Assembly: GCA_016932855.1 (NCBI GenBank)
Contig: JAFGCB010000023.1
Location: forward strand, 4,825 to 68,824
Direction: 5' to 3'
DNA: 64,000 bases
Source of the DNA: Candidatus Omnitrophota bacterium
GTDB lineage: Bacteria > Omnitrophota > Gorgyraeia > Duberdicusellales > Duberdicusellaceae
Shown: positions 5,893 through 64,000 of the stretch, one piece after another
Layout: each line of letters starts with the position of its first letter
Numbering within the stretch: position 1 is the first letter of the stretch
The notes under the pieces: generated by a model
The model's input: the letters and a program-made list of their open reading frames with translations, nothing else
Databases searched by the model: none
Told to the model about the DNA's origin: nothing
Made by a program: the position numbers and the translations under genes

Positions 5893-6033
5893 ACTCTGCC
5901 TCCTTTCGTGTTTTTAACATCTGGCTTAAGCTCCTAATCTTTGGATTATTTTGCTCACCCCCTTACCTATATAATATATAAACGCCTCCCAAATTGATAA
6001 TTTTAAATTGCTAATTTTACATTTTAACTTTTA

Positions 6034-8355: not shown

Positions 8356-8360
8356 AATTC

Positions 8361-8470
8361 CTATGATTTCTCTTCTCCTCTTCTTTCTTCTCCTCTTCTT
8401 TCTTCTCCGCGTCTTTCTATTGTTCTTCTTTCTTCTTTTCGTCTTTCTTCTCTTCGTCTTTCGACCTGCA
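8361..8470. repeat. About 110-nt polypyrimidine (CT-rich) tract with 15-nt periodicity, encoding the EERR-repeat tail of the MFS transporter
   Basis: ttctcctcttctttc repeated, with variants. The plus strand is almost pure C/T from 8361 to about 8470. Confidence 0.85.
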
Positions 8471-10981: not shown

Positions 10982-11865
10982 CAGGCTTGTTTAAAAAATT
11001 TAGAAACTCTGTTAAGCATAAAAGATATACAGACCAGGATAAAACCAAAAATAAGCGCCTGACAACAGGCATAGCCGAAGCGTCTGTACTTTATCATGGA
11101 AAATAAAATTCTTATAACCGGCACTTCCGTATGTCCTGCCGGGCCTCCTCTGGTCATGGCTAAGATAAGGGCAAACCCTTGCATTGTGCCTAAGATAGTT
11201 AAGATAACCACCAGCACAAAGACAGGTATCATCATCGGGACTGTAACATTAGTAAATCTTTTTAAGGCATCTGCGCCGTCAACAGTTGCGGCTTCATAGA
11301 GCTGGCGGGGAATAGTCTGTAAGCCCGCCAAAAGAATAATAAAAGCCCATCCGAATCCTTTCCAGCAATGAACTAAAGCTATGGCCGTAAGGGCGGTTGA
11401 GCTGTCGGAAAGCCAATCCCGGGCAAGATACCCTAAGCCTACCATAGAAAGCCAGTGGTTTAAAAGCCCGAAATCTCCGTTATAGATCCATTTCCAGACT
11501 AAACCTACGACTATCTCGGAAAGAATCGGGGGAAGAAAAAATATAACCCGGTACACCGAGCCGGCACGTATTGCCCGGTCACAGGCTAAAGCCAGCAATA
11601 AAGCTAAGAAATTCTGAAAAGTAAGAGCCCATAAGGTTATGTAGCCGGCTTGAGCCATGGAAGACCACCAGGCTTTGTCGTCAAAGATGACCTCCTTAAA
11701 GTGGGCAAAGCCTACGAACTTCATGGTCGGATCTATCCCGTTCCAGGAATGCATGCTTAAATTAAAGACCTTAAAGAAAGGGTAGATATAGAACACCGAG
11801 AAGATAATAAGCGCGGGTAATACGAATAAGAAATTTGTAAACTCTCTTGTGCCTTTTTTCATCAA
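10981..11865 (-). CDS. Sugar ABC transporter permease (MalF/UgpA-like)
   Basis: EAA loop YEAATVDGADALKRFTNVTVPMM. Multi-TM. 4-nt overlap with the substrate-binding protein gene. Confidence 0.85.
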   Translation of the reverse strand: MMKKGTREFTNFLFVLPALIIFSVFYIYPFFKVFNLSMHSWNGIDPTMKFVGFAHFKEVIFDDKAWWSSMAQAGYITLWALTFQNFLALLLALACDRAIRAGSVYRVIFFLPPILSEIVVGLVWKWIYNGDFGLLNHWLSMVGLGYLARDWLSDSSTALTAIALVHCWKGFGWAFIILLAGLQTIPRQLYEAATVDGADALKRFTNVTVPMMIPVFVLVVILTILGTMQGFALILAMTRGGPAGHTEVPVIRILFSMIKYRRFGYACCQALIFGFILVCISFMLNRVSKFFKQA

Positions 11866-13342: not shown

Positions 13343-13708
13343 TTACTCGGCCTTATCCCGGAATAACCTGGACATGCCAAAAAGTTCAGGCTTATTCAGG
13401 TCCACGCCTAATCTCCAGTCTCCGGAAAATTGCCGCTCTACCCAGGCAACTCTTCCTTCCACTGTCAAAGGCTTCTTCTGGTCGGGAAAATGAAGCCATA
13501 TACGTAAAGGCGCTGCCTCGGGTATTCCTTCTTTGCTTACTATACCCAGTCCCTGAGCGCTTATATCGCAGGTTGAAGCCTGGGTAATTCTACCGTCCAT
13601 CAGGTCTAAACACCTTACAGGAAGATTGGCCTTAAACCTCTGAAACCGCCTTCTGTCTTCTTTTTCCTCAAACGCCGCTACTGACGCCATATTTATCACC
13701 TCCTTCAA
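13343..13708 (-). CDS. PilZ-domain protein (candidate c-di-GMP effector)
   Basis: RRRFQRF (RxxxR) and DISAQGLG (D/NxSxxG) motifs with PilZ spacing. GGAGG RBS upstream. Confidence 0.7.
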   Translation of the reverse strand: MKEVINMASVAAFEEKEDRRRFQRFKANLPVRCLDLMDGRITQASTCDISAQGLGIVSKEGIPEAAPLRIWLHFPDQKKPLTVEGRVAWVERQFSGDWRLGVDLNKPELFGMSRLFRDKAE

Positions 13709-38000: not shown

Positions 38001-41000
38001 TTATAGCTAACTCCTAACCTTTTGATTAATACGGGAAAATTAAGCAAAATTTTTGTTTCCGGGCAAATACCTTCAAATACTATATACTCTTCTGCTATTC
38101 GATAAGCAGCTAAAAATCTTCTTTTCTCTTTAAAGGCGCCTGATAGACTGCTCATTGGTGTAGTAAACAAAATCCCTAAGAATCTTAAAAACATTATTCC
38201 TAATATTTTTAATTTAGAAAAAGATGATATTTTTTCCAAATCAGCAATATTAATATGGCTGGCCTTCTCTCTTATCAGAGAATCAAAATATTTTTTTGAT
38301 GCACCCAGTTTAAAAATCCTGTTACATAAAGATACATAGCTTTGTCGCATGCTGCTCAACCAAAATGCAAATACTGAGCGCTTTATCTTAACCACAATAC
38401 CCTCGCCCTCAAGAAGCCAAGCCGAACATTCCCAGCCTTTGCCTATAAATACAAGTGGCTTTTTAGAGGTAATCTTTAAAGGCGAAGAGGTAATATCATT
38501 GGCTGAAGACAGCCGTGATAATCTTATCGCATAAGTGCGTATATTGCTATTGTCCGGGGCAAGCATGTAGGCTTGCTGTGAATACTTTATCATCGGAGCA
38601 AAAAATACAGGATCGTTTGTTAAAACTAAGGCATGAGAAAATCCTCCTGATATTCCATATAACAAGTGACCTAGAATGCGGCCCAATGCTTTTCGATCCC
38701 TGTGTATTCCAAAACCAGCATCTACTAGCACCTTCTCGTCCACAGCTGTTTCGGCATCCCCGCTTAACCCTAAAAATTTATGCACATCTTCCCTGTGAAT
38801 GCTAAAATCCAAAATCTCAATCTTTGCATTGGCCAACAGACGGCCTAAAAATACATGGGGACTACCTTTCGGATTCGCAAAGTCTATAGAGGCTAAGCTG
38901 GAGCCATTGTTATACCCAAGTCGATCTAAGAGAAAATAGCCGAATAAATGACTCATAGCGCAGTGAGATAAGAAATGTTTAGTAAGCCATTTCCCTCCTA
39001 TCTCCATACCCCTTCCAAAAAGCTTGGCATCCTCATCTTCCAAGATGTTTAATAAAATCCCTAAATTATCGGCAAAAATGCTCTTAGCTTCCGGACTCTC
39101 GTCTTCAAAATAGTCTATTCCGCATCTGTAAGTACTGGCTTCGACAACGCTTGCTATATGGCCGTCTAAGCTATAATCCATAATAAAGGAATCGATAATT
39201 CCCAAGATTAAACCTGATTCATAGATTCTTTTTTTGTATTTTTTTATAAGCTCGGCGGGATTCTGATCAACGACAATTAATTTGGTAGGGCTGCAAAGAG
39301 CCAACGATATATTACTGACTACCGGCGGGCCGTTAATGACTCCTCTTTTAACAAACCAGTTATTTAAAACTGTATGTATATTTATAAATCTTAAAATTCC
39401 CCTATTGCTGCAAAATACCGCCTGCCTTACAGGTTCTCCTTTAAGTAGGCCGGAAAATAAGCCAGGGCTCTGTAAATTCAGACTCATCTTCTTAAACACT
39501 ATATCCGGCACAGGTAAGGGAGAATTTGACTGGTAAGGAATCTCACTTATTAGAATCTCCTGCGGCTTCTGTTTAAACCGGAAATGAAAACCGCAAAATT
39601 GCACATGTTCGTCTCTTACGGCTAGAGACCTTTCTATGGGCACAATCCGGATTACCTGAACAGGGATAGATGCTGTTGGCGAAGCGGATTGACTGTTTTG
39701 GATATCTTCCAGAAGAGAAATTACTGCATTAAATTTGTCATTATAAGATTTTGCTTTCTCCCGGCTGATATTGATTAATCTAGCCCAGGCCTGTATGCCG
39801 TTTTGAACTTTTTCCTTCTCCTCTAAATCTGTGATTGATTCAATCTTTCCTAAATTAGGAATCACCTCTTCTTTAAAAGGAATATGGTCAAGACATAACA
39901 CATGCCTAATTGAAAAAATCTCTCTTGTAATATCTCTGTAATCCTTAATAATACCTCGCTCAATTAAGCTACGTAAAGTCGTTAAAGCAGTCTCTACCTG
40001 CTCTTCTAGCTGTGTAATTATTCGATCTTGCGCTGGAGAAGAAAAGGTTGGGGATTCGGATTCTAGACTACCAGAAGACCAGCGGATAACAACCTCCCGA
40101 AAAAGAGCACGCAGAGCCAGAATCGCATCACGACGACTTACGAAATTAAGGGTATTTATAGCCTCCATGAAATTCTTATTTCTGGCTTGAGATTCACTAA
40201 GTCTATCAATTATCATTAGAATACGGTCTCTGCCGGAGCCTTTAAATTTCATAAAAGAACTAACTCTGGCTGATCCCATGATGATTTCAATGGCTGCCTT
40301 AATATCATCTCTATTGCCGGGTAAATTTATCAATTCATCCCCTAGTTCGTCTATATCTTTTATCCCGGAATACTTCTGCCGATAGGCCTGTTCTCCATCC
40401 CAGGGAGCAGACGTCCGTAAATCGTAGTCCCCAAGATTCTTTTGCGGAAAAAAGAGCAACGTCTCTTTCATCGACGGTATTATTCTTCTAAAGAATTGGT
40501 CGTAATCTTCTCCCTGACTGGTTACAATTTGACCTATCCGCCCAAGCCAATTATCCCTCCATATCACTTTATCAGCTGGAGAACTGGCAACCGGGGTTAA
40601 TTGATACAAAACACCCCGCTTTGTTCCCAGCGAACAAGGCACTGAAACAAACTTACAAGAAGTAGGCAAAACTTTACCGCCCTCAATAACCCTTTGTATC
40701 ATGACATACAAGAAAGGAATCTGGTCTGAATAGAAAATTTCTCCTGTTTTCGGGTTTCTTCCTCCCATAAATTCCGGCACGCTGAAAAGAATCGTCCCCT
40801 CGGCTCTATTTTTAACCCTGGCTATTCCTTCGACAATCTTGCCGATCTTATCAGGCCGCCAGGTAGGAGGAGCTTTAGAGGAAAGCTGGGCGTTAAGTTG
40901 ACTCGGAGTTATGACATCCGTAGCAACTACATGCGTAAATGCGCCTTTAAGAGTGTTTTGAATTTCGAATCTTGAAAAATCTCCCTCAATAAGATGAAAA

Positions 41001-44000
41001 CTGCCGCCTGCCGCCGAGATAGAAGATTTAAGCTCGCTATATCTTAGCTTCAATGCTGCTATGACTTCGGGTTTTTTCTCAACGCTTACGGCATTCGCTC
41101 CGAAAAGTGCAGCGATAAAAGAAAAACCGCCAAATAAGCCGCTTCCTATATCAAGTAAAGTATCCTTGGGTTTTATTCCCATGCTCTGCACAGTGTATCT
41201 GCCTCTTTCAAAAAGAAGCCCCTCATAGAAATGGCCGCCACCGTCAAATACCAGATCTTTCTTTTGCCATTCTTTCATCCAAGCCGCACCGGAAGGGATA
41301 TGCTGCACGAATACCCGGCGTATCTCTTCTTGAGCAGCCCTGCTGAGAGGCGAAGAACTTGCACCCGAAGTGCCCCATGCCGGTTCGTCTAACCCACCCG
41401 GTCTATAAGCCCTGCCGGTAAGTTCATCGATAGCGTAACCTTGACTTATTAAATCCTGCCGGGTCTGCGTGGATACGTATCTTTCAAATGGCCTTATCTT
41501 ATCAATATTATCAATCGGCGGCGGATTCCTATAAATACGGTCATCTCTATTCCTGTAAAACTCTTTCTCTATTTCCTTAAAACTTAAAGGAATACCTGCT
41601 TTAGCTAAATCCTCTTTGGTAAAAATCGGCTCATTAACTCCTATGGCCTTAAAGCAGTTTTCGCTTTCCGGATGTAATCCGGCTAAGACCAAGGCTGCGT
41701 ACTGGGTAAGATAAAGACGCGTTTCCGGATATTGCAGGGCCAAAGACCAGTAATCAGGGGGTGAAACTCCTACACGCAGAGGCCCAAGCACTTCTCCGGC
41801 TGCCCTCCTAATTACCGCCGGATCAAACATACGCAAGATATTTAAAGGATCATCATATACAGCGGTAACGCCCCTGGATATCTCCTCCTTAACAAGATTT
41901 CTTGCCCTATTAAGGTCCTCTTCTCCGTCTGCCTCCAGAATTCCGCGCACAAAACGATTGCTGGAAACTTTTATCAGCGCTTCATCCTCGTAGAGAAACC
42001 CGTCATAGAGAAAAGTCATAGGCATTTTAATTCTGTTCTTTGACTTAGGATGCTTATTGAACCTTTCATACAAATTAGGATGCAATAAAGGATTTAATAA
42101 TATATCCCTATCCGTAAGAAGAAGACCTCTGCCTATTTTTTGTACCGGCTGGTTAAGAAGAAGCACTTCGTAGCTGCTGTTTTTGAATCTAATGCGGCCT
42201 TCTAATAAAACCTCAAAGGACCCCCCTGAGTCCGAAGTCACCTTAACGGATTCTTTGGTGTATAATAGCGGCTTTAAGGAGCGGTTAGCAAGCTCCTTAA
42301 GCAATTCATCTAATGTATCAAGGGGCATCGATAAATGCAGATTCATTCCGACTTTAATCTCGGGGAATTCCTGAACTACGACCTGTATAATATTTGCAAG
42401 ATATTTTATCGGTAAGGTATCTACGATTTGCCCGTCGCTATTCATATGTCTATTTCTATGGAAAGCATCGCCGGTAAAACTTAAGATTATAAAAACCGGC
42501 TTTTTGCCCCTGGTTTTTCGCTGTAGGTTAGTTTGCCAGATTTCAGATATATTATCTCTTGCATCATCTAATGTTTTTGCCCAGAAACCGCTTGTGCCCA
42601 TGGTCAGAAAATCCGTTTTCGTTTCCAAAATAGCCAACTTGATAAGATCTTTTAAAAGCCAAGGGTCACCGCCGGTAAGAAGAGGCGGAATTCCTGCCTC
42701 ATAAGCCCAATCCAGGGCTCCCAACAACTCAGCCTTGCTTAAAACACCTCTTCTATACAAAAATCCGAGTTGACAATGCCGGCAGGGAAGAACGCAGCGG
42801 CCGGTAAGAACTATTACAAATGGCTCAAAATTGCCGAACATTGAATCTTTAAATCTATTGTTGAGTAAACCGATTATCTTTAATCTCTTCCTATCTAACC
42901 GGCTGTCAATGAAAGAATAGACGTACTTTTCTTTGGCGACTACGCGTTCTTTTTCATGCAAGTATTCCTGCCGGTTCCAGAGCTGATAATTATGCTGGAT
43001 GAGCTTGACTAAAGGATAGACTTGGGCCGCCTCGCAACCTGCGAGATATTCGCCAGCTTGAACAAACATCTCAAACCCTTCCGCGTTATCGATAATATGC
43101 TGGCCGATATAAACAAATCTCTGAAAATCGGAATCGATTTCGGCGATAGGGATCAACCATCGTAAATGAAAAGATCCCTCAAAACTTATCGAATCGATGA
43201 ATTCCAACTGCTTAGATCTGGGGATTTCTTCCCGCAAAAAGTTTACTGCATATAATAGCAAGGCTAAATTAGTAAAGGCTGGCTCTAATAAATCATCCTG
43301 CCCAATATTATGATTGACCATATCATTGAAAATTAAAAACGCCGAAGAAAAAACCCTATTCTTTTCAGAAAGGTATTGGTCTAAAGGATCCTGAATGGGT
43401 CCGGGTAATATTTCCTTTCCGGAAGCCCCGCTTGTACTTTTTGCTTTAATAATGGGTTCTACTGTTTGACCGGACTGGTAAAGTTTAATAAGCTCTCTTA
43501 AGCCTAAAGCCTTCTCACGCGGCTTTCCCATCTGCTTTCTAAGCTCTTGCTTTTTGTGTTCCTTTCTCTGAGTTCTAAGCTTCATCTGTTTCTGGGCTCT
43601 TCTTTTTGCCGCCTGCTTATTCTTCTTCTTAGCCGGGGAGCTTAAGGCCGTATCCTGGAAAATGGAAGATAGTGAGCTTTCTGCCTTAATCATACGGGAA
43701 GTTATTATTGTCTTTCTTATAAACTTTTTTATCTCTCTTAAGCTTGTTACTGCTTCCTGATGGTTCGGTATTACTATAATATCCTGGCCGCTGTTTATAA
43801 GCCTGGCGACCATTAACATTTCTTCGCTCTCTCTTCTTAGATACAGAAGCCCAAGACTTTTCGGACCTTTATAGGGCTGTAAAAACAACCTGCCGCTTGC
43901 TTTTTCAATCTTATTTTCTATCCGCTGTGTTGAAGAATAAAAAACAAAGCAGTCTCTTCCGCCTTCGCTTTTCAGACTGACTCCTCTTATCGAAAGTATG

Positions 44001-47000
44001 GAATTAGTAATAAAATCTGCATGCCGATTTTTTTTAAGAGGACTAGAAGATAAATTCCGTATTTGAGGAAGAATATTATTGAAGGAAAGTCTATTTTTAT
44101 CAAAAACATATATCCTCGTTATCGCACTTAAAGGAACGTCTTCTGCGGCCCTGTTGCAATCATCATACCAACCGGTTATTCTTCGCTTATCAAGCTTAAC
44201 GACAACAGATATAAAGTTTTCCGTTGGGTATTCTCCTTCCGGCTCAAAGGCATAGGGTAAAGCTTTTATCGGAGAAGGATCAGTATCTATAAACGGCCTT
44301 ACTGCATGGGCAGTTACCCTTGAAAGAAGTAATCCTACTTTGGCAACCTCAAGTAAGTCTTTAATCGTTATCCTCATTCCCCGGTATCTTATATCTTGGC
44401 CTGTTTCCATTGAAGCCACAAGGCCTTTTCTTACCTTAAGTGAATTGGGCGGATTAAAATATTCCATATCCCATAAAAGTCTTCTTAATTCTTTCTCATC
44501 AGAAAAAATGCTGTCTTTTAATAATACTGAGGCTGATTTTAAAGCCTTTCTTCTTTTTCCCAAAGGAGAGCTGCCAGATGATGAAGCGGGGATTTCCGGA
44601 TATCGATATGAAAGATGGCTGGGGTTTCTATTCCGGTCGTATTTTGTAGCCTTAACCTCATTCTTTATAGCTATTAAAACTAAATCCGGTGCCCTATCCA
44701 CAAAGAAAATTCCCTGCGTTACTACGCCCGGGGTTATCTTAAGCATCCGCGCTGTCTTGGCAGGATTTATTATCATCTTCCTTGAGAAATCGGCATCGAC
44801 AATAATCCTTCTTTCACGGTCGCCGGGCCTGAATATAGAGCTATCATCGTTTCTTCGTATAGACACCTTACCTGCCCCCATAATCTTTAACATAAACTTA
44901 ACCAGATAAAAATAAGGCTGTTTTACCTCAAAGGGCAAAGAAAACTTGCCGAGAAATTCTTTCGACTTTTTACTTTCAGCGATAATAATTATCTGCCCTT
45001 CATCCTTTACCGCCCGCATATTTGCCAATTCATCGGTAAGGGCTCCTCCGCCGCCTTTGATTGCGTAGCCGTGACTGTCAACTTCATCTGCTCCGTCTAC
45101 GATAATATCTATGCCCAAACCTTTCGCTTTAAGCTCTTCAAGCTCCATTATTTCAAATCCAAGGTTTCCAAGTAATTCTCTGGTCCTTGGCGAAGAAGAA
45201 ATAACAATGATACTGTCCTTTATATCGCCGCAGAATATGTCTAATTCTTCAATAAAATGATTCCAGACATTTGTCCCGCTTCCCGCACCTAAGATCAATT
45301 TCTCGTTTAAATTCTTCTTTTTTAGGGCGGCCTCAAAGACGAGCTCAGCGGCATACTGCGAGACAAGGCGTTTCTCCTGCTCATAGTCTGAGAATTTTAA
45401 AACCCTCTTTGTTCTCTGAAAAACACTTGTTGCGTCCAAGGGCGATGAAAAAGCCTGAAGAATTATGACATCTTTATTTACTTTGCGAATATAACTTTCG
45501 GGGTAAAGACGGCGGGTTGGAGTATCTGTAAGAAAAGAAGATAAAGCGGCCCGGACACGGCTGAGGGACCATCCAGCCACGGAAGAGGTTACCCTCGGGG
45601 AATGACCGCGTCCGAACCGATTCAATACTATATTAAGATTGTTTCTTAGAAAATTAGGCAAGGAATATTTAAAGAAGAGGCCCGGGAGCGCTGGAGTACC
45701 ACCAGCCACGGTGAGGCCACTCCGGGGAAAAACGCTCCCGAACCAATCTAATACTATTTTAAAACTATTATTAAAAAAAGCAAAAGGAAGAATGACTAGG
45801 GCAGGAAGGGCGAAAGGGATAGAAGAATCAATATTAATTTGAGGTGGACTGTTTATTGATAAAGAAAGCCACTCGGAAACCTGAGCAAGACTTGCTGCCG
45901 TAAGTCCAGTGCCTATCCGGTTGCCTCTGTTATGCAACATTTTTGTTTGAAACAAAAGTGTTGCATTAAAATCGCCGCCCAGAGGAGAACTGCCGGAATT
46001 ATCTTCCGTCGGCAAGAGATAATCCTCAAGCTCAGGCCAGTCTTTTAAACAATGTTCAAAGAAATCTACAAATCGATTGCTTTCCATTCTCTCTCCGAAG
46101 GGCCCAAGCCAAGATTTTTCCAGTAAATACTGAAAATAGGCGCCGTCAACATAACCTCTTCTTTTACTGCCTATCTCCTTATCTATACCTAATAATCTAA
46201 AAGTATTTCTTACATCGCCTCTTACGGCAATATCATGCAATAAAACCATAAGATAAGCGTTGATGCTGTCAATCTTTACTGATCTTTTCTTGTTAAGAAA
46301 TTCGGATATTTTTTCAGTAAATGCAGTATTGTCAAACAGGAAAAATAAAGGCCTTAGCAGAAGCTCAGACTCTGATAAAGCCTTCAAAATATGCGGATAG
46401 AAGTGGTACAAAGCCATAAAACAGGCGTATTCATAAGGCACTAAGTCGGCAAGAAGAACCGCCTGGATATGGTGGGTGTCACTGGCTTCATCATAACGTA
46501 TGGAAGGCTTATTTCTTTCAATCGAATCGATGACGATATTTGTCTTAAGCTCTTTCTTCAACTTCGGCCGCCTGGGGAAGTTCTTAACTCTTGTATCCGA
46601 TTGCAGGAACAAATTCCTCGAAAGAAAATCAAAAATTCCCTCAAGCCGTGCCTTAAGCTGACCCTGCGCAAACTCGCCAAGGCTTTTCAGGTTTTGATTA
46701 TCCTTAAACTGAAATCCCTCTTCTGTAATAATAGCTTCGCCCAAATCAACCGATTCAAATTTAACTACTTTTTCGAAGACAGCAAATTCTTTATCCTCAT
46801 AAACTCTATCAATTATCACAAAAGCCGTCCGGTCGATTCCATCGATGACTATCGTTATCGTGGGAGTAAAAATAATATCCGGGGTATGCTTAAAAACGCT
46901 GAGCATTGACGGCCAGCCGGTCTGTTTATCTAATTCAATCGAGACGGTGGGATTAATTATGCCTCCGTGGGGCTGGGAAAAATGACAGACTTCTATGGGA

Positions 47001-50000
47001 AGCAGCTGACCAGCCTTAGATTTTAAACCAATCTCTTTTATAAAGGCCGAGCGTAAGCTATCCCAGAATCCCTCGATAGCCGGCCATTTGTTGATAAACG
47101 AACGGCTAGGCTCCCAGCGGGCCCAGTCTATTATAGCCCTGTATCTACCGTTCTGGATCTCATCAAAAATTAAAGTATGATTTTTTAAAATCTTGAAAAT
47201 TCTCTCTTGGCAGCCATCGATGTTTTCCACCTCCGGCATAATACGAGAAATATTTACGGTAACAGCTATAAATTCAGTAAAGAAGCTACCCACAAATCTT
47301 TTATTAACCTCCTCCTTTACAAACCTCTCTGATTTTACTCCCGGGCCGAAGTGGAAAATCCAATGGCTGCGATCACGCTTCTTTATCTCGGAGCGCAAGT
47401 CATAGGCTATCGATTCTAGTCTTTCCTCAAACCTCCTTAATAACCACAAAGCGATTTTTTCTCCGTAGACAGAATCGTAGCTTAGGCCGTTTACAGGGTC
47501 TATGGAGACTATAAAATCTGAATTCCACCAGGGCATAAACTCCATCTTAACCGGAGAACTGGAAAAACCTTCAGAAATCGTGAATTTGTCGCGATTTTTG
47601 AGCAATCTTGATGCTATCCTTGAGACCGGACCGTCATTTTCAAGGTCAGCTCTGTATTTCAAGCTTACTTCCACAGGCGGAGCTGAAACAATATCAAGCA
47701 CCTGAACGGAAAAATTAAAGATATTATCGAGGCTACCTAAATCCCGGCCATGCTCAGCCATAATAAATATTCTCTGCAAGTAATCTTCAACCAGAAAGTT
47801 AATCCTGTCTATCTTTGTAACTTTCTCCATATCTGCCTTTTGGGTCCACCAGTTATAAAAGAAATCATAAGCCTCGCTGGAAGCCATCTCAGACAACTGA
47901 AGCAATATTTGCCTTACCTGCGCCAGCTCAGAAAATAAAGGCACAACTACTGACACAGCGACTCCCTTATTCTCTGCGGCAATTGGGGGCTTAAGAAACC
48001 CTAGCCGATTTTCAAAGCTTTGACTCCAGCCTTTAAGAAAAACCTCAAGGCCGTGAACAAGAAAAACTTTAGGCGACAATAAATCTGTCTTATATATTGC
48101 GCGGTATTCTTTCAATTCATAAGGAACAACTATACGCAAAGCCGGAGCTAAAACCGGGGAAAGAACTGATATACAACGGTAAAGTTTAGATTGCTTATCT
48201 GGATATCCCATGGAAATAAACTCTTTAAAGTCTACTGTAAGCATATTTAAGAAAGAATCTAGCCAGGCTCCTAGTTCTTTTGCGGACTTAACGCTATTAT
48301 CCTTTTCAAAAACCTGCTTAAGCCTTCCCGCCCAAAACGCGCCCAGAATATAAACTGCTCTTTGGGCTTCAAGCCCTGACACCAGTCTGGAACGCTCCTC
48401 CTCTTTCAATTCCGGCTTATCAAGAATAAACTGGATTATAGCCCTATGCCCAGCTGAAGTACCTTTTCCTTCAAAAATATTATTTGGGTATTCGCCGCTA
48501 AGGGTCGAGTTTAAATAATCTATATCGCCATTAATCTCTTCAACCGAATCATTATCTTGTAAAAATCTATAGACAGCCCGCATGCTCGACTCAAGAGACT
48601 TAAGAGGGGAGCTTATTTCTTTCCAGGTACCGGCTAATACATATACTTCCTTAATATAGTCTCTGGTGTGTTTGCCTGATTTTCTTCCTTGCAAAAGTTC
48701 CTCCATTAAATTCAGCACTTCCTCGGCTACCCTCTCGTCTTTAACTCCAACCACCTTAACATCTGCCCTAACCCCGTCAACCAAACAAAGCTCTATTAAA
48801 CTTACAATGTTACTCGGTGCTATTCTTATATATTTATCCGGGCCTGTCTCTGCGCGCTTAATCCAAATATCAGCATTGAGCTCGCTTTCGACCGTACCAG
48901 CAAAGTCCGTTATATATACGGCGTTTCCAGCGTGCTTTCCTTTTATATCTGCCTTTACAATAATCCTTCTACTGGCTTGAACCAAAGGCGAGCTGGTTGG
49001 CTGTTGCTTAATCGAAAAAACAGAAGCATCCCCTTTTTCTCTACCTTGCTTCATCGATGCTGTGGAGGAATTTTTTATTGTTATTATCCTTTCTTTGTTT
49101 ACCGGGCTTGAAGACTTCTTTTTCTCCACAAGATGGATAATGCCTCTTAGTCCGTTTATGCGCCAGTCGGGGTCTTCAGCAAACAGCTTATCCACCATAT
49201 TATCAGTAAGTCCGACAATAAGCTCAAACTTTAAGGTCCGCAAGGCCGCAAAGCTTGTCGGAAAATAATCGGCTAATTTTTCCAGCTTCTGGGTATAGGA
49301 CCAACACCTGTCACCTATAAGCTTGCGGTAATTAAGATCACCCTTTATTATAACCAGGTCTGATTGAGCCAAATCCTGCTTTAAAGGCCGGGGCATCATC
49401 CTGAAAGATAGCGGCCTTGTCCAGAATAATTCGTCCTTAAGAACAAGCTTATCTGTACGAATATATTCCCTTAAACGCCGGGCGAAATTCCTAGAAACAG
49501 GACTATCAAAGTATTCCAAGGCTTCCAAGAAGATGTAGACGTCTTTAACCAAAGCATCGGAAATAAACTGCGGCCTGTCCTTAAGATGTACGAAAACCTT
49601 TTCCACAAGCCTCAGTTTAAGAAGAAAATCAACCATGAATAAATCAAACATCAGTTCATGACCGAAATTATCGACTATAATATCAAGGCGTTTAATGCGG
49701 CCCGATACTAAAATCCGGGCAAGCCTCCAGGCATGGTTTTTAACCAAGTTCCTACTCCATGCCTTGGCTAGAATAAATCTCTTGGTTTTTTCTTCCATGT
49801 CTTTATCACTGCCGAAAATAAAGGAAGTGCTGCACAAATCAATACGGTTGCCCCAAAGCATGCAATTTACCAGATAAAAAGCGGCGTCAACGTCTTGTAT
49901 TCCCCTCTGAGAGGTAAGATTTTCGTAAGCATTGATAAAAATATTTATCGCACCTGTCTTACCCGGCAAAGTCTCTAATTTCCGCTTTTCAAAAGGATCT

Positions 50001-53000: not shown

Positions 53001-56000
53001 AATATACTGTAATTTACCGCCAGAAAAAGGCGCCCTATATTTGTTTTTTTCTTTAAATAGATATAGGAAATCGCGGCACAAGTAAACCCTGTAATCACTA
53101 TCGGATTAAGGTCAGTCCAGTCGTAATGGTGAGGAATAGCAAAAAATCCGGTAAGGTATATAACCGTAGCCCAGAAACCTGCTGCCCAGTAATTAAACCA
53201 CTTCTTAAGCCGTTTAGTGAAAAACCTGGCTGTAAATACGAACAAAGGAATTGCTTTAAGAATAATAATTTCCCAGGTTTTAGCCTTAATACCGGCAACA
53301 GCCTCTTTTAGCCAGAGCAAACGGTCCTGCCTTATCTGGGGAGAATTTTCCTTTATGACCTCGATAGCCTGGTTTGAATTGTCAATATTTTGAATAATAA
53401 CATAAATCAGAAATCCTGCAACAGAAGCGAAGAAGACAAAACTAAAGAGGCGGCCTAAATTCCATTTAGTCTTCATCTTGAAGACCTGTTTTGCATTAGC
53501 CCGGGTTTTCTCATTAAGTAACTTCTTAGTCCCGGCCCTATACTCTAATTTCAACCTGACTTTATTAAAAAGTAGGCCTAAAAATCCTAATCCCAGCAAA
53601 GCCAAGGAAGACAAAACCAATGCCAGGCTGAAATTAAAAGATGGATAAATATTCGATAGGCCTATTGATCCGGCATATTTAGATAAATATAAGGCTATGC
53701 CTGCCAAGCCGATGGTGACAATAGAAATAATCTTGAGTTTACTTATCCCTTTATTAACCTCTTGGTTAGCTCTTTCTCCTTTCTTCTGGTGCCATTTAGC
53801 GTCATCTACCCCGGATCTTGTTTTGCGCAGAAACTCTTCGCTGCCGATCGCGAATCTTGCGTTTGCTTTTCCCCGGCGGAACAACCGCCAACACCAATAT
53901 AATAATAAAACTTCTGCCGGCCAAAGAGCATGTATGAACGCTGCCTTGGTTGCTATAGCCACTGCCAGCAAAACACTGCTGGCAAGAAGGACTATTACGC
54001 TTACTATTTTGATAGTTCCGTAGGCGCCTTCTGCCCAGGCTCTTTCTTTTCGCGAGGCATGCCTGAATCTGGCATTAATGTCATCATCTAAAGGCCATAA
54101 ATCTTTTGTCCTTACTCCGCCCACTGGACCTACCCTGGGAAAGACAAGAAGAAATCTTCTGCCCATGGTACCTTTACGCAGACCGAACTCTCTGCTCACA
54201 TTTTTCGTATGCTCTGACGTACGGCTGTTAAAGGCGAATTTACGCAGCAATAAGGCAAAACATACCCCCATAGTTAAGAGTGTATAGACAATATTACTCT
54301 GGATAAAAGCAACTATCGCAACAGGCAAACCAACATAGAGAACAGTCTGGCCCAAGACCCAGGCAATACCCCAGCTTCTATTGTCCCTAATCTCAATGGG
54401 GAACCGGCCGCCGCTAGTGTAATCACTGCGTTTTTTTGCCATATTTTCGGCATCCACGCTAATCCTTTTATTAAGCTTTCCCACAACCAAAGCAAGTAAG
54501 CTTAAGCCTCCTACTACTGTAGCCAATATCTTTGCTGCCTGAACAGCCCAAGATACCTTAATAGCATCAACCGCCGGCTGAACCTGGCTAATGCCTTCAG
54601 CAATACCTTCAGCCCCTCTAACCAGGGCCTCGGTTGATGTTTGCACCTCAGTGACCATCTTAGGGGATTCCAAACCGAAAATAAAATATAAAGCTGTTAA
54701 TATTCCCAGGCCCAAAATCACTATGCTTAATACCTTAAAGGCACTGGTAAAACCATCTCGTCTGCCGGCTTCTTCTCTGCCTTGAGATAAAGCATTAAGC
54801 GCGCCTACATCTCCTAGCCTCGCAGTCCTGCGCCAGGCTTCCTTAAGCCCAAGCTTCCTGAACAATTTTGCAATGGGGTCTAAAATCCCGAAAGTAACGC
54901 GCTTCTTAACAAAGCCCGCCTGGACCGAAACCGTACGCTTGAATATCCAGTTAATATATATGGAAAGAAGAAGAAATACTGTACCCAGGGCAATAAATCC
55001 GACCGGACTGGTTATAAAAGCTAAGAGTTTCTGCGGAGACTGAACGTGTAAGATTGCTAATCCCGATATAATCCCCAAAGTAAACAAGAAAGGTAAACCC
55101 GCAGGGTGCTTAAAGAACTTATACAGGTTAACAAATATCTTCTTAACGCAAAAATCAGAAAAACTTCCCAGGCCCTGCCTTAAGCTAGGAAGGCTTATCT
55201 GTACTTTGGGTATATTAATTGATGGCCGCGATGTTTTTGGTTTCCGGATTTTTGGAGCAGTATAGACCTGTTCTGTTTTAACTTTTACCACGGGAGTTTT
55301 CTTAATCTTTCTTGCAGAGACAGTTTTTTCTCTTGCCGGCTTATAAACTTTAGACTTCCGAGCTATATCAACTTTGTAATCTGAAGGTAAACTTATTATC
55401 AGCCTAAGACAGGTTTTAATCGATTCGATCTGGGCTGCGTAAGGCTGGCTGACCCCAAGGGTAATTTCTATCTCCAGCCCGGATTCTTCGAAAATCTTAC
55501 TTGTTCCTCTGAGCACGCCTTGGGCTTCCTTAAATACATCGCTTTCGTATATTGCCCAGGCAAGCTCTCCAAGCCTATTGGACAAATTGCGCCTTATTTC
55601 TATGGCATCTTTGCCCGAGGAAACTTTAAATAAAGAACTCTTCAAGGACATGAAACTGTCCCGGAAATCATCATAATCAGAATTATAAGAAAAACTTCCT
55701 TTATAAGACCTTTTACTAAGCTCAAGTAAAGGCATAAGATACCAGATAGCTTCCAACATGCTCTCTATGCGCCATAAGTCGGAAAATTCCGGACCCTGCC
55801 CCAGCTCAATGTTCCTAAAGTCAGCGGCTACTTTTTCGCTGCTAAAACTTATCTTAAAAAGAATGAATTCCGCAAGCTCCCGGTAAGAGCTGAAGACACG
55901 CAGATGAAAACAATCCTTTTCTCCAAACCGGCTGTATGCGCTTTCCTTAACTGTTAAGGATTTTAAAAGCCGCTCGCTCATCTGTCTGTTTAGCGAATCT

Positions 56001-59000
56001 CTGAAACTACGGGTTTTCATCAAATGCCTAAGGCTCAGGCTTTGGCTTGTATCGACTATTACAGCTACCTCAAGCCGGTTAATAGCTTCCTCTTGCCGAA
56101 TAAAAATACCCTCGCCTTTAAGATAGGCGGTCTTTCCGACAAGTAATGCCCTTATAGCCGGAACATCAACTCCTCCTAGCTTATCGTGCCATACGGTATA
56201 AACTCTGCCTGTACGTCCTGCAAGGGCATTATTTATAAATCCGTTAAGTTCTGCCACATTTAGACCGCTCTTATTCTTTAAAGCAGAAAACCTGCTTTTA
56301 TTTTCCGAGATGATCCGGGAAGTTTTCATAGTATCTTTTTTCCGGAATTTTAAAAGGAATTGTTTTGTCGGTGAGCTTAAAGAAAGGCGGGCATTTTCAG
56401 GAGAGGATATCGCGACGCAAGACCTATCCGGCGGGCTGTTTCCTGATATGCCTCTTTTTATAAACCAACTTCGCAATATATCGCTAGTAAAAGAATTTTC
56501 GCTGTTTCTCTGCGCAGGGGAAGACAAGAATCCATCCTCAATCCTGTCAATTACTCTCGGGCCGTAGTCGCTTTTAATATCAGAGCCGCCAGTAATTAAA
56601 TATACCGGGATCTCTAAAGATAAGGCCTTATGAAAAAGTTCTGCCATATCCAAAGGCATGGGCTTATGCAGTAAAGCCACGCAGCCGTCGACATCAGAGA
56701 TAATAGCTCTTATTATTATATCTGACTGTTCATGTCTTCTAAGAGCCTCGTCTAAAACCGGATAAACACCCTTAATCCCCGGATGCTCGGTAATTTTAAT
56801 CGAAGGAATATTTAATACATCAGCAGGGTCGCCGGCATAATAAGGCCGGTAATCAACGCTGTCTGAGGTAATCCGTAAAAAAGGAATATCAACCGGGGAA
56901 TCCCCGAAAGCAAATACCGCTCCTCCGTCAAAATTATCAAACAAAGGCCTTACAATATCCAACTTATCGTTTAAAGTCACCTTGCAATAATCCTTTCCAG
57001 TAAAGACGGCATAATTTTTATTATTTAGAATACTTTGGGCGCCGGTTAAAGAATTTAGTAGGTCGGATTCAAAACCTACAGCGGAAAGAGAGCCGAACCT
57101 ATTTACAAAATCCTGACAAATCCTTATCTCAAGCTCTGATAATTTATTAAAAAATTCAATCTTAAATCCTAAGCCCTTACCGAAGCAAGAAAGAAGTTTC
57201 TCTATATCTTGCAAGTGGGTTACCGGAGAAAAGAATTTATCACGCCAATGAGTTCTTACTAACACGGCCGGATTCTTTAGATATATACCCGCAACAAGGT
57301 TATGCTCCCAGGAATTATAAAGATAGATAAGACTGCTGGCTGAGATGCCAAGTTTACGGCTAGTCAATTTCCAGAAAGCAGCTGAAAGACTCTGGCCGAT
57401 AATCAGCTGATCCTTAAGATTAAACTTCTCTGCCTTAAGCTCCTCTACCTTTCTTTCGCCCTTTGGAGTATAGTAAACCCTGCCTTTTCCTGATATATAG
57501 TAAAAATCAAAGTTCCTAAGATACTGGCGAGAGGCCTTAAGGCTTGAGGAAGAACCAAAAATATTATCTTGCCTCAACAATACTGCTATCTCTTCGGTCT
57601 TTTTAGAATATTTACCGGCTATGGATTCATACCGGCTGGCCTTTGTAAACTCATACATTAATTCGAAAGCCAGCCCTATATGGCTTAATACATATGCAAC
57701 AATAATCCCTAATGCCTGCTCGTCTTTATATATTCTAAACCCATGCTCAACCAGCTGTTCTGCGTTCACATATCTTCCATTATTTTGAATTCCTAAAATA
57801 TTTGCTACTTGATCTTTTTCCTCTCCTGCGTCCAAAAGGTCAAAGCCGCCATTGTTTTCAACGCCCAAAAATACATGCTGCCGCTTTCTATCCTCTGAAT
57901 CCTTTAAGTCTAGGTCTATTGCAGCTAAATTGCCGTAATATCCCATAAAGCTAAGAGAAAGATAGCCGAATAGTGAACGCACGCCGCACAAAGAAAGCCA
58001 GGTAATTATAGCCTGGACTTGTAAAGGCACTTCTTCTATGCTTGATAAACTCTCAGGATCAGGAACTAACTCATTAAGATAACTTGTAATAATAGCGGCG
58101 TCTTCTGCGTCCATCATCGCGCAGGAAGCATTAAACATATCAGCTGTAGTCGACTCGTTTCTAATCCAGTTCTCGACCCTTTCGATTACACCCGGCGTAT
58201 CCTGGGGAAGATGGCTTACTCTTACAAAAGGCTGGATATACTGGGGGATAATATTGTTAAGAAAATTGTTTTTCTTGTAATGGCTTAAAATAGATGCTAG
58301 GTCTGTTTGTTTATTACTTTCCACAATATTAATCTTAGATTCAAAAGGAGATGAGGCGCCCGAAGAACTACCAAAGCTTTCTTTAGCATCTATACGGTGG
58401 TCCATCTTCAACATATACTTGGCAAAGTAGGCAGAAAATATGGGAGCAAGCATCTTGCGGGTAAGGTCTTTTCGTATCCTACTCGGCACGCCCGGCAAGC
58501 GGCCATTCAAACTAGCATCACTTGACCTATGCATTATGTCCCTAACATCCATGTATTCTTTTCTCTTTTCGATAAGCCGCTGTCTGTGAAAAGCGTCGTT
58601 AAAGTAAAATGAACGGTAGTTAAGTATCCCGCTATTAGGATCAACCAGAATACTCCTGTATTCCTGGGGTATATTATCCAAACCACCCAGCCTTCTTATG
58701 ATTTCCCGGCGTGTCTTACGGGCGTTTAGAATAACTTCCTGAGAAAAATGAAACGGCCCTTCCAAGCCTGAATCAGGAACAGGCGGAGGTGCCTGGGAAG
58801 GAAAGAAAAAGCGGAAACCTCTGTCCATTGCTTCCAATTCCTCGGCTGAAAGCACAATCATAAACTGGGCGTATTCGCTTCTGATCCTTTCCCACACTCC
58901 GGCGTATTGATCAATCAGAAAATTAATATCTATATCCCCGTGTTCCTCGGCTATAAGAAGAGCGGCGATTACCGTAGCTTCGGTTATGAAATGGGCCCCT

Positions 59001-62000
59001 GCAGGAAACCCTTCACCGTTGAACATGAGCAGAGAAAAGACATATCTTTTAAGAAGCTTAACCACCTCCAAAATATCGGTATCCTCTGATGACTTTGTCC
59101 TTCCAGCTTTATACCAGGTAGAATCAAAAGGCATATAAATATCTTCCCAGACCGCGCCTAAGTAAATCATTGATGAACGCTCCTCGGTAACCCTTATATA
59201 GGTCTTTATGTGCTCTACCACATCCAGATCATCAGAGCCCCAGCGGGGCTTCATTTTAGATATGCCGTTAATATATCTTAGCCCGGCCTGTATCTGCTTC
59301 TGGGTTAAGGCCCTTCTTCCGAACTCTCCATATAAATACAGGTAAAGAGCCTCGGCTCTTAGGCGCCGCTCCCTGGGAGTCATATCTTTCCATACATTGT
59401 AATCAGAAGGGTTCTCATGCTGGCTGGGCCGATTAAGCTTTTCGTATAGAGCAGCGATTTCTTCTTCTACCTCTTTTATACTCTTTTTTCTTATTAAGGT
59501 AAGTTGACGATCCGAAAACCGAGCTATCCTCTTTAAGATATCCAACATATATCTGTCTGTAACCGCGGTAAATCCTTTGGCAAGATAACAGAATACACCT
59601 CTTGCGCCTGCCTGATGAAGGGCCAGTATCTTAGCCTGCTCTGCCAGCCAATCATCATCAAGATGAGGGTTTATTGCTCCAAAAACATCCCCTTCTTTAA
59701 TCCCTGTCTTTTCAACCCATTCTCCGGGAGTCGTAAGACCTTTTAGATGGTGGCGAAAAGCAACTTTCCTTGCCCGGCCCCAAGTCCCGTATGCCTGAAC
59801 TAAGTAAAGCATGTTACCGAAAGCTATTAAAACCATAGACAAAACAGAAATAGCGCCCCTAACAAACATGGGCTGGCCAAGATTTTCTTTCTTAAGCCAG
59901 TTCTTGCCTTTAAGACCTTTAAATAAATTGTAATAATAGTCTATTAGCCTCAAAGAAGAAATCTCTTTACCTAAATCATCGGAAAGCATGCTAAAAAGCC
60001 GTGTTACTGCCTGGTCATTCCATTGTTTGATAACTGAAAACTCCCAGGGATGAGTAAATAGCCTGAGTTTCTCTGCGGCTGTCTTATCAAGAAAGAAGAA
60101 GCCTTGGCTAAGTTGAAATCCTGACATCGGAAATACTTCATTTAAGCTTGCCTCGATTCCCATTTTCATCGACATATCTTTGGCGTTGCCGGTAGCAATA
60201 ACCATGGTAGTAGCATTTTCCCCTGGCTGGCGATCCCTAAAAAGAACCTCATGCCAACTGGAAGTAATGAAACCGTATCGAGGCTTGCCGTGTTTTGTAA
60301 AGAAATTATCGATTCCTCCAATTTCTTTAGCGTGACCGGCGGCAATATGATAGGTGGCAAGCTTACGGGGATCACTGTTCCTAACTTTTTTATAATCTAT
60401 GGCATCAATAAAAGCATTTTGGGTAAACGGCGTTCGGGTCTCGCAAAAACCCTCATGGCCTTTTCCTGAATAATCAGGCCCGGTTCCGTTTAAAGATACG
60501 CAGAATCCTCCGAACTTCTCGGTAATAATATAGGACATTCGCCAAGCACTCTGTTGCATAGTTACAAAATACTGATATTGAACAGGACTCTCTTTTCTCC
60601 TAAGTCTTCCTTTCAAATATTTGTCAAGCAACAAACCTTTCTTTTCAATATCAGCAAGTAAGGCTTCATAGTCGCGGTCATTCATGGGATTTTCCTGTAT
60701 CTGATGATGCTGGCTCAAAAGCTCATCTTTACTGTCAAGCCTTTTAAGATATCTTCGATATTGTCTTTGGGACATGCGCTTTGCGTTCTTATCGAGTATA
60801 TCTGAGTAATATAGATACTTGTTCTGATCAGATATACCCAAATCATTGAAGAAATTATTTAATATATTGGCAAAAGCATGGTAATCAGTCCTTTTCTGGG
60901 GAAAAATAGCATCAAGAGCAAAAACCGCAATCTTCTCTACCGAAGGCATCATTTCTTTGCGGACATCAACCCCGTGCGCCCGCAATATCATTTTCACCCG
61001 GGGGTCATCCCAGCCTTCGAATATTTCTCTTTTAGATAGGCTGCCGCGTAACCTTTCGGGTGTTCCAACTACAAAATCAACTATTCGGGCATAAGCCATC
61101 CAAGGAGTCTCTCCGGTGCAAGTCTGGGTAGGTATTAAATTAAAATTTTTGCTGTACTCCCAGTGCTGCCAGGCTTTTATAATCTCACAGGCAACCGAAA
61201 TAGCCGTATCCTTTACATTACTGTCGATTATAGGCCGCATATTCAAGGCATTTGAATAAGTACGGCTATAGCGCTCTACCGCTTTATCCCAGCTGCTTTC
61301 TTTAATTTTTATTCCCAGCATGGAGATGAAATCCGCCAAGGCCGGGCCCACGGGAAGAGGCGAACTGCTTGATATTTTAATTCCAGCCAGACTTCCTAAT
61401 GTGCTTGTGTTTCTATCTTCTATAACCCTACCCTCCTGAGTAACCATAAATATTTTAACTTCACTACTTAAGTCAAAGATATTTTCACTGATTCTTACCG
61501 GCTTTAGGTTATCGTCTAACAATGTAACTTTGTGTTTAACCTTAAGCATTCCCCTCGCCAAATCTTTAAGAGTTGAACGGGCCTCTTCCTGAGAAGACGA
61601 AAGAGCTAAAACTAATGCTATCCTGCCCCGCTCAAGTTCGGCAATCCCCAGGTTGTAGCTGTAGTAAAGGCTGTCTTTGTCTATGCCGTTATTCTCGGCC
61701 AATTCCGCTAAGCTAAGATGATCGAGACTGTAAACAAAAGGCTTAGCATTTACTCCGGCAATAAAAGAAAGATTGTTTCTAAATAGCTTATCTTTAAGAT
61801 GATGACCTATAAAGTCACTGTGGGCGATAATCTGCGGTCGCGGCGGAATATACTCTATGTTTTCTTTCCTAAACAAAAAGTTTAGCTTCAACGGACTTGC
61901 CGAGCCGATATCGAAAGAATCTTCATCCTTGAAAGAATAGACCAGAACCCGGGAAAAATCATACGCACCTACAAGATTATCGGCCCGGTCTATCTGTTCC

Positions 62001-64000: not shown

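Follow-up and report, generated by a model that had tools for sequence, protein, structure and literature searches.

An Omnitrophota gene of 16,626 or more codons for a predicted membrane-anchored multi-enzyme protein

Introduction

Very long open reading frames (ORFs) have been reported from most classes of the Omnitrophota, where those of more than 20 kb show 'few annotated domains' and poor conservation (Seymour et al., PMC10066038). The prototype of these giants is the protein of 39,678 amino acids (aa) from Velamenicoccus archaeovorus LiM. West-Roberts et al. described 'Archaeovorins', which combine numerous transmembrane (TM) helices with glycosyl transferases, methyltransferases (MTases), S-adenosylmethionine (SAM) enzymes, NUDIX domains and several sugar-phosphate enzymes; their genes lie close to carbohydrate import genes, and peptidase domains were suggested to cut the chain (West-Roberts et al., 2023, bioRxiv 10.1101/2023.11.21.568195). 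More recently, 916 proteins of at least 10 kAA (thousand aa) were catalogued and a 'multi-enzyme metabolic cluster' class was defined; 94% of the catalogue carries TM segments or a signal peptide, a TM-only class facing the cytoplasm makes up 46%, and GH2 genes occur in the flanks (Nielsen & Lui, 2026, bioRxiv 10.64898/2026.06.07.730766). In the same work, a wider set of 5,761 such proteins gave sequence clusters of which 80% were singletons. Domains reported to recur in Omnitrophota giants are radical SAM, HAD, methyltransferase, HATPase_c, signal peptidase II and ROK, and a divergent SecA-DEAD domain with an N-terminal C39 or S8 peptidase is given as a class description for 'most' full-length members (PMC10066038; bioRxiv 10.1101/2023.11.21.568195; bioRxiv 10.64898/2026.06.07.730766). 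Here we describe a giant gene on a stretch of 64,000 nucleotides, hereafter the window, from contig JAFGCB010000023.1 of the Omnitrophota assembly GCA_016932855.1 (contig positions 4,825 to 68,824).

Judged by its sequence, the product of this gene is a modular, membrane-anchored multi-enzyme protein of the kind already catalogued for Omnitrophota. A preliminary description of the locus had stated that such a chain corresponds to no characterised protein family. Taken biochemically this is literally true, but as to kind it is out of date, since giant multi-TM, multi-enzyme ORFs have been described for the phylum. How these giants are made, whether they stay intact and to which side of the membrane their enzyme units are turned are questions posed in all three papers (PMC10066038; bioRxiv 10.1101/2023.11.21.568195; bioRxiv 10.64898/2026.06.07.730766), and the present member makes them testable.

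A single selected reading frame

The giant ORF occupies window positions 14087 to 63967 on the minus strand (14087 including the stop codon), a stop-free span of 49.9 kb and 16,626 codons. The frame is still open over the 33 bases that remain to the window edge at position 64000, so that the true N-terminus may lie outside the window and 16,626 codons is a lower bound for the length of the gene. The region from 40700 to 63100, to which the preliminary description had drawn attention, is in frame with the ORF (aa 290-7756) and corresponds to the first 45% of this single gene.

The ORF is a real, selected coding frame. Stop codons occur at 58-127 per 1000 codons in the other two minus-strand frames over the same span, the codon-position signature (GC1>GC3>GC2) is uniform over its full length, and the purine fraction at codon position 1 is 0.60-0.66. 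That the frame should instead be a mis-assembly, a pseudogene relic or non-coding sequence open by chance is hardly credible. The window comes from one assembly only, and a fall in GC content at third codon positions (GC3) to 0.29-0.32 at aa 13001-15000 could be a join; against this stand the 16,626 codons without a stop, the uniform codon-position bias and the intact catalytic motifs of RpiA and DUF89 described below. In addition, the 3' 11 kb of the gene and the genes downstream of it are repeated in a contig (L001) of a separate Logan assembly (SRR13394437). Neither RNA elements (Rfam scan) nor significant tandem repeats (Tandem Repeats Finder) were found in the giant gene, which holds just two short simple repeats.

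The low-GC3 stretch corresponds to window positions 18968-24967, the remaining ORF having a GC3 of about 0.40, and overall GC at 20-26 kb is 0.35-0.37; the modules encoded there may have been acquired more recently. On the opposite strand, an ORF of 189 aa (44340-44909, plus strand) lies antisense to the RpiA region and is most likely a chance open frame.

Enzyme modules equivalent to free-standing proteins

The translated ORF was scanned against Pfam and NCBIfam in overlapping chunks of 1000 aa, and against PDB sequences in pieces of 3,700-4,500 aa. Significant families are ARMT1, RpiA, a NagB-LmbE-like unit, LysM and HTH_8, none of which dominates by copy number, while radical SAM, signal peptidase II, HATPase_c, HAD and P-loop families match below curated cut-offs. 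The preliminary description had named seven enzyme folds: DUF89/ARMT1 and RpiA are solid, four others are weak and one is unsupported, and its call of a LysM domain is solid. The motifs and positions that it gave all fall in the translated minus-strand frame, except the HAD motif GDxxxD, which lies outside the range quoted for it. Its central observation, that soluble enzymes usually found as separate proteins have been joined in a single, very long chain anchored in the membrane, is borne out by the ARMT1 and NagB-LmbE-like units, which match whole proteins.

The DUF89/ARMT1 damage-control phosphatase module (Pfam PF01937) spans aa 4541-4954 (49106-50347, minus strand). It matches the Pfam profile at E 8.2e-52 (176.8 bits against a gathering score of 25) and PDB entry 7t7n at E 1.6e-45, and the two motifs by which it had first been recognised, DNFGHE and KGDLNYRKL, are present; aligned to 7t7n, the metal-binding pair DNFGHE and KGDLNYRKLIGD is intact. 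An exhaustive HMMER search with aa 4300-5499 against 1.84 billion representatives returned 2003 relatives. The best 150 of these all match aa 4541-4954 only, most being proteins of about 400 aa aligned end to end, with a best identity to free-standing relatives of 41%; among the matches listed, the flanks of the module within the query had no relatives. Like the free-standing phosphatases of subfamily III (S. pombe 7t7n/7t7k, human 6umq, yeast YMR027W 3pt1), the module is matched over its full length and carries DNxGxE and KGDxNYRKLxGD; unlike them (about 400-470 aa), it is embedded in a long chain.

Other homology searches were less sensitive. A search for homologous proteins with aa 4501-6500 and aa 270-700 gave no match, although the ARMT1 part within the first of these queries has the 2003 relatives just mentioned, which argues that a word-index search fails on long or very divergent queries. 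No relatives were returned by a genome-contig scan with aa 4501-5500 or by a metagenome scan with aa 1-1000, and PDB sequence searches with aa 1-4500 and aa 8601-13100 gave no match.

Ribose-5-phosphate isomerase A (RpiA; Pfam PF06026) is represented at aa 6199-6443 (44639-45373, minus strand). The Pfam match (E 1.5e-19, 70.7 bits against 26) was obtained on a chunk containing part of the domain only, and is joined by NCBIfam PRK00702 (E 9.7e-25) and PDB entries 3kwm and 1ks2 (about 3e-19; 3.7e-19 for 1ks2); TIGR00021, in split chunks, gave 83.5 bits and did not reach its equivalog cut-off of 126.4. The motif triad GAGSGT, DGADE and KGGGGALTDE noted earlier thus stands with profile and structure-sequence support. 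DGADE, KGGGGALTDE, SKK and GVVTQGIF align to catalytic or binding residues of E. coli RpiA (1ks2), and the phosphate loop reads GAGSGTN instead of GxGxGST. Asp81, Asp84, Lys94 and Glu103 of the E. coli enzyme, which we take to be the residues with these roles, all have equivalents in the module. In alignments to the sequences of the PDB structures, the catalytic motifs of RpiA and DUF89 are both intact.

A third unit had been overlooked. At aa 886-1846 (58430-61312, minus strand) lies a module of about 950 aa with a NagB-like and an LmbE/PIG-L-like part, as in the amino-sugar fusion family NCBIfam PRK02122, which matches aa 1255-1351 at E about 6e-19 to 1e-18 (67 bits against a family cut-off of 384). 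A search for homologues of aa 1000-1700 returned three proteins, 869-1042 aa in length (P0157, P0158 and P0159, the latter two annotated as Omnitrophota), which align over their whole length to aa 886/900-1825/1840 of the giant at 31-33% identity. These match PRK02122 at E 1e-26 to 6e-34 and nagB at about 1e-7 (0.005 for the copy in the giant). The zinc motif PHxDD is invariant in the alignment of the four sequences, occurring in the giant as NPHLDDD at aa 1432-1438. An AlphaFold model built from this alignment reached a predicted local distance difference test score (pLDDT) of 70-88 in the C-terminal half, and the best Foldseek matches of the model were archaeal diacetylchitobiose deacetylases (probability 1.00, TM-score 0.6 on target), together with other LmbE-family deacetylases. 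The unit thus shares its two-part layout, PHxDD and C-terminal-half fold with PRK02122-type proteins and the archaeal deacetylases (8bgo, 3we7). It differs in falling far below the family cut-off, in its large insertions, one of them hydrophobic, and in occurring both free-standing and inside unrelated giants.

A metagenome scan with the alignment of the LmbE-like module found ten loci, and in seven of them the module is part of a longer ORF, from 2,685 to more than 7,513 aa in length. Those giants share with the present protein that module alone, their flanks being unrelated, and in three cases TM helices flank it. Two of the module-sharing giants were scanned further and carry GT1/GT4, a xylose-isomerase-like TIM barrel, aldose epimerase, Glucosamine_iso, FBPase, HEAT and RNA-polymerase alpha C-terminal domains. 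The LmbE-like unit is shuffled among unrelated giants, and the giants are assembled from enzyme cassettes that exist also as ordinary genes. Enzyme modules are thus exchanged among unrelated giants and with free-standing genes, which accounts for a class whose architecture is conserved and whose sequence is not.

Two observations concern the relatives of this module. One module-sharing giant (L091:1970-12301) holds the RNA-polymerase alpha C-terminal domain (4e-23) with a helix-hairpin-helix (HhH) motif at ORF residues 885-1019, so that DNA-binding-type modules recur in Omnitrophota membrane giants. The gene for P0157 lies directly downstream of a TatA/B/E gene in two independent contigs (L083, 9509-9724; L084, 348-563).

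Enzyme-like regions with sub-threshold matches

The remaining enzyme calls vary in how far profile searches follow the motifs. At aa 296-374 (62846-63082, minus strand) a P-loop NTPase-like unit carries a Walker A motif, GKQLSGKTT, at aa 313-321. Some 20 matches (E 0.005-0.6) are all anchored on this motif and none is at a curated cut-off; they include the PRK07667 kinase, the PRK09270 nucleoside kinase family, PPK2, APS kinase, Zeta toxin, MobB and nSTAND3, and PF00485 (PRK/uridine kinase) is absent among them. Compared with the genuine PRK domain of a syntenic giant (L016), alignment is limited to the P-loop. Of the earlier reading as a UK/PRK-like kinase, the Walker A motif stands and a profile match beyond it was not found, so that the kinase type is only suggested.

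The Rossmann MTase-like region proposed near the N-terminus (aa 500-640; 62048-62470, minus strand) was read from a motif, VLHIGSSFSD...GADKVIVTDFMPEKM, whose Gly-rich loop is degenerate; no profile or PDB match was found there at E<=5-10, which leaves the call unsupported. A single-sequence AlphaFold model of aa 285-690, which covers this region and the P-loop unit, had a pLDDT of 36 and was discarded. The HAD call is weak. In the fragments at aa 2310-2480 (56528-57040, minus strand) DVDG is present (aa 2425-2428, within the motif I-like IISDVDGCV), but the motif IV-like GDSPVD (aa 2354-2359) precedes it by about 70 residues, a non-canonical order, and PF12710 matches only aa 2310-2365, at E 0.018 and with just the C-terminal end of its model (positions 124-189 of 189).

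More can be said for a putative radical-SAM-like N-terminal core at aa 7050-7133 (42569-42820, minus strand). The predicted CxxxCxxC (CVLPCRHC) and GGDP are present, GGDP standing as a GGE-type SAM motif 24 residues past the last Cys, together with MGTSG; Pfam PF04055 matches at E 1.6e-3 (19.1 bits, below the gathering score of 29.5), the NirJ, MoaA and KamA models match at E 2e-3 to 4e-2, and the PDB sequence search gave no match. A class I SAM-MTase-like unit at aa 7583-7700 (40868-41221, minus strand) likewise shows the motif I expected of it, LLDIGSGLFGG, with motifs I-IV readable. Each of its seven best PDB sequence matches is a class I MTase, aligned at the motif I region (E 0.011-0.34, hence weak), and no Pfam match was found at E<=5. 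A weak match to ornithine aminotransferase at aa 7737-7834 is probably spurious and was set aside, as it straddles one of the junction motifs treated below.

C-terminal domains and internal paralogues

Near the C-terminus, three tandem Fis-type helix-turn-helix (HTH) units occupy aa 15801-15947 (16127-16567, minus strand); they were recognised by sequence reading and by profile (Pfam HTH_8, E 1.2e-17 over two stretches; PDB 4l5e, E 1e-4). About 620 aa further on, the chain ends in a LysM domain (aa 16568-16597; 14177-14266, minus strand), which had been predicted and matches Pfam PF01476 at E 1.9e-9, above the gathering score. No hydrophobic segment lies between the two, which would place DNA-binding and peptidoglycan-binding domains on the same side of the membrane.

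The chain also contains paralogues of its own parts. An orphan domain, D, is found at aa 3788-3996 (51980-52606, minus strand) and again at aa 15977-16178 (15434-16039), the copies sharing 33% identity (internal BLASTP E 1e-24); it has no Pfam match, and a profile search against the PDB gave nothing significant. A second orphan pair, at aa 1990-2147 (57527-58000) and aa 8332-8485 (38513-38974), is 30% identical, with no Pfam or PDB match.

Membrane segments and topology

A permissive hydropathy scan gave 35 candidate TM segments over the whole ORF, clustered at aa 2957-3716, 11569-12065, 12523-12583 and 14370-14624. The more than 30 TM helices claimed earlier are thus present as candidates, although at least two sit inside globular modules: the isolated segment at aa 1372-1390 lies in an insertion of the LmbE-like unit and that at aa 7611-7629 overlaps MTase motif I, and neither is probably membrane-spanning. 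The picture of enzyme folds interleaved with large hydrophobic clusters is overstated, as aa 2957-3716 (52820-55099, minus strand) is essentially the sole polytopic cluster within the region at issue. This anchor, of about 16 helices modelled as hairpins, has no Pfam, NCBIfam or PDB match.

Sidedness was estimated by counting charges on a hand-built helix model. In loops on the side where both large flanks lie, 23.3% of residues are Lys or Arg; on the other side, where the loops are short, the figure is 9.6%. By the positive-inside rule, we infer that the anchor leaves both large flanks in the cytoplasm; the P-loop, LmbE-like, ARMT1, RpiA and radical-SAM-like units would then be cytoplasmic too.

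A second membrane cluster, outside the region at issue, includes a signal-peptidase-II-like unit at aa 11569-11760 (28688-29263, minus strand). Pfam Peptidase_A8 (E 1.3e-4, profile positions 1-141 of 142) and NCBIfam PRK14774 (7e-5) both match it below cut-off. Its strings QVDYLEI and INIAD resemble what we take to be the two catalytic-Asp boxes of LspA.

A recurrent junction motif

The preliminary description had also remarked on a recurrent SSPL motif at junctions, and this motif proves to be real, enriched and placed at module boundaries. In the form [S/I/A/L]-S-S-P-[L/A/V/I/M]-[K/G/S] (hereafter the SSP motif), 62 copies are dispersed from aa 179 to aa 16489 (14090-63433, minus strand). 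SSP occurs 62 times against 4.5 expected (14-fold) and SSPL 27 times against 0.48, and SSP is absent from the 4,065 aa of nine neighbouring proteins. Since 39 different 9-nucleotide strings encode it, selection acts on the protein sequence, and the same diversity rules out a scar or an uptake-type sequence in the DNA. When 23 module boundaries were set independently of the motif, from free-standing homologues, internal paralogues, TM clusters and Pfam domains, SSP was found within 40 aa outside 16 of them (random mean 3.6, maximum 11 in 20,000 trials), and only once inside homology-defined cores, where 10.7 were expected.

The segments delimited by SSP resemble whole proteins. Segment 868-1872 is 1004 aa long, against 869-1001 aa for free-standing LmbE-like homologues, segment 6174-6466 contains RpiA, and segment 7538-7795, at 257 aa, has the size of a class I MTase. 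SSP motifs flank both copies of orphan domain D and stand at the same aligned position in each. A long form of about 35 aa, KGDASIYFVDGKPISSPL..YK.DSN.FV, is present in seven or eight copies (minus strand; aa 4979, 9872, 10885, 11082, 12358, 12935, 15956 and 16478, that at aa 9872 being nucleotides 34228-34351), concentrated in the C-terminal half; no known domain was identified in it.

Enrichment of this kind, at boundaries and hardly ever in cores, would suit a bacterial polyprotein. The chain would then be a precursor cleaved at the SSP-hydrophobic motifs or close to them, yielding some 40-60 products of which many equal ordinary enzymes, much as in viral polyproteins or in the autoprocessed effector arrays of MARTX toxins. 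The protein-level selection, the absence from neighbouring proteins and the correspondence of the 1004-aa and 257-aa segments to whole free-standing proteins all favour this, and West-Roberts et al. (bioRxiv 10.1101/2023.11.21.568195) had already speculated that peptidase domains may cut such giants. We nonetheless regard it as a rather unlikely explanation. In the visible ORF no protease domain was found (E<=1-5) besides the sub-threshold signal-peptidase-II-like unit, and cutting of the giant by that unit at internal lipoboxes was rejected, since only two lipobox-like strings occur and neither follows a hydrophobic segment. The motif is also missing in 21 other giants examined, of which 11 are syntenic and 10 share the LmbE-like module, so that processing at SSP cannot be general to the class; and Ser-Ser-Pro followed by a hydrophobic residue is typical of a helix N-cap or a flexible linker as well. 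Most likely, the SSP motif would mark flexible inter-module linkers, either read by some partner or acting as helix caps.

A stricter form of the idea, a true polyprotein or programmed precursor whose 62 SSP motifs are recognised either for cleavage or for a modification at specific sites by which release is controlled, seems to us more doubtful still. Were it correct, the cell would release from one chain of 16,600 or more aa dozens of products of enzyme size, each corresponding to a protein that stands alone in relatives, and SSP would be a lineage-specific 'junction code' unseen in other Omnitrophota giants. The motif in any case offers proteomics and N-terminomics 62 defined sites, and several modules have exact bounds, since they equal whole free-standing proteins.

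Neighbouring genes and syntenic loci

Downstream of the giant gene, and in the same direction, lie genes for sugar import. A PilZ-domain ORF of 115 aa, of the cyclic-di-GMP-binding family (13343-13690, minus strand; called in the Logan contig L001), stands between the giant gene and an ABC sugar operon, which encodes a solute-binding protein (11862-13175, minus strand) and two permeases (10981-11865 and 10148-10981, minus strand). Further genes at 352-9980 (minus strand) encode an MFS_2 sugar transporter, a GH2-like TIM-barrel protein with TPR, a GH72-like protein, a TPR protein and a ROK protein with an N-terminal winged HTH. Genes for a type II secretion system or pilus are not in the window; the upstream side of the giant lies outside it.

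For the adjacent permease, the 80 best genomic relatives (59-77% identity) come from Omnitrophota metagenome-assembled genomes (MAGs) or third-party-annotation MAGs, the latter labelled just uncultured Planctomycetia, Planctomycetales or bacterium. Ca. Gygaella obscura, at 77%, and V. archaeovorus LiM, at 61%, are among them. By these sequence relationships, the contig is of Omnitrophota origin. In 11 other Omnitrophota contigs (L002, L003, L007, L008, L011, L016, L020, L021, L022, L027 and L048; first 5-7 kb of each), the same ABC operon is directly preceded by a long ORF that continues beyond the start of the locus. Across these loci the permease is about 70% identical while the C-termini of the giants are unalignable. 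Orthology with the syntenic giants was rejected, as the last 2000 aa or so show no similarity (best E 0.05) and other domains are found there, among them CheR, GNAT and a bona fide PRK/uridine kinase.

A probable role in sugar processing

The most likely role of the giant, as far as its sequence and surroundings indicate, is that of a membrane-bound, probably cytoplasm-facing platform for amino sugars and sugar phosphates in a host-dependent Omnitrophota cell. Whole enzyme copies (a NagB-LmbE-type unit, a DUF89/ARMT1 sugar-phosphate phosphatase and RpiA) are separated by long orphan stretches and joined by SSP-hydrophobic linkers. Tethered under the membrane, the enzyme units of the chain are expected to work inside the cell, given that they need phosphorylated sugars, ATP, SAM and iron-sulfur chemistry and that both flanks of the anchor are predicted to be cytoplasmic. 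The co-directional ABC and MFS importers, GH2-like hydrolases and ROK protein make sugar processing the most likely task. Together with these importers, the platform may take up host- or prey-derived sugars and amino sugars, which would then pass through deacetylation or deamination, dephosphorylation and pentose-phosphate steps. On balance we lean slightly towards this reading as a whole, in which whole-enzyme copies and orphan stretches on membrane anchors make the protein a member of the described Omnitrophota class acting as a membrane-bound sugar platform.

Several points weigh against it. The C-terminal LysM domain points to peptidoglycan, outside the cytoplasm, and the free-standing LmbE-like homologue P0159 has a Sec-type signal peptide, while the module in the giant is predicted to be cytoplasmic. 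The topology comes from hydropathy and charge counts rather than a trained predictor, and does not cover the N-terminus, which is perhaps outside the window. Most domains of such giants were predicted to be extracellular by West-Roberts et al. (bioRxiv 10.1101/2023.11.21.568195). As to class membership, no match to SecA-DEAD or a C39/S8 peptidase was found at E<=1-5 in the visible ORF, whose N-terminus may lie beyond the window, and HEAT and glycosyltransferase domains, frequent in the described class, were not found there either. Significant annotation, moreover, covers about 2,100 of the 7,467 residues of the region at issue.

Some of these points would suit a surface or envelope mega-scaffold, as the preliminary description had suggested. 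The chain would then lie mostly outside the cytoplasmic membrane, attaching to and digesting the cell wall of a host or prey, a reading that we consider unlikely; that its enzyme-like units have substrates outside the cell or work as binding modules is equally unlikely. Besides the LysM domain and the signal peptide of P0159, the GH2-like and GH72-like genes downstream favour a scaffold, and V. archaeovorus and the 'Archaeovorin' class have been interpreted in this way in the literature (PMC10066038; bioRxiv 10.1101/2023.11.21.568195; bioRxiv 10.64898/2026.06.07.730766). However, RpiA, DUF89, the radical-SAM-like core and the P-loop need phosphorylated sugars, ATP, SAM and reductant, which are not expected extracellularly, and both flanks of the main anchor are on the side rich in Lys and Arg. 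The three HTH units upstream of LysM, with no hydrophobic segment between, also speak against a scaffold, as does the lack of a signal peptide at the visible N-terminus, an end that is possibly incomplete.

Comparison with known systems

As a whole, the protein is what an Omnitrophota specialist would expect. Like the described giants, it is encoded in an Omnitrophota host by a single ORF of more than 10,000 aa, has tens of TM helices at about 2% of residues, and holds many enzyme domains of which none dominates, including sugar-phosphate enzymes, radical SAM, HAD, methyltransferase, HATPase_c and signal peptidase II, several of these as sub-threshold matches here. Its sequence is mostly orphan and poorly conserved, and its gene lies beside carbohydrate import and GH2 genes. 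In its visible part it is shorter than the set of more than 30,000 aa studied by West-Roberts et al., and reaches the 10,000 aa or more of Nielsen & Lui. It has ARMT1, RpiA and LysM, of which there is no mention in West-Roberts et al. (2023) or Nielsen & Lui (2026), and the SSP junction motif sets it apart from the other giants examined.

Beyond the phylum, MARTX toxins and viral polyproteins offer a functional analogy only, in that they too are mosaics of enzyme modules with a short recurring motif in the inter-module linkers. Unlike them, the giant has no cysteine-protease or other processing domain and no RTX repeats, and it is three to four times longer. The eukaryotic proteins AROM, CAD and type I fatty acid synthase resemble it in carrying consecutive metabolic enzymes in one chain, plausibly for channelling. 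They are, however, soluble and conserved, with 5-8 domains of one pathway, whereas the present giant is, as predicted, membrane-anchored, mostly orphan and fast-evolving.

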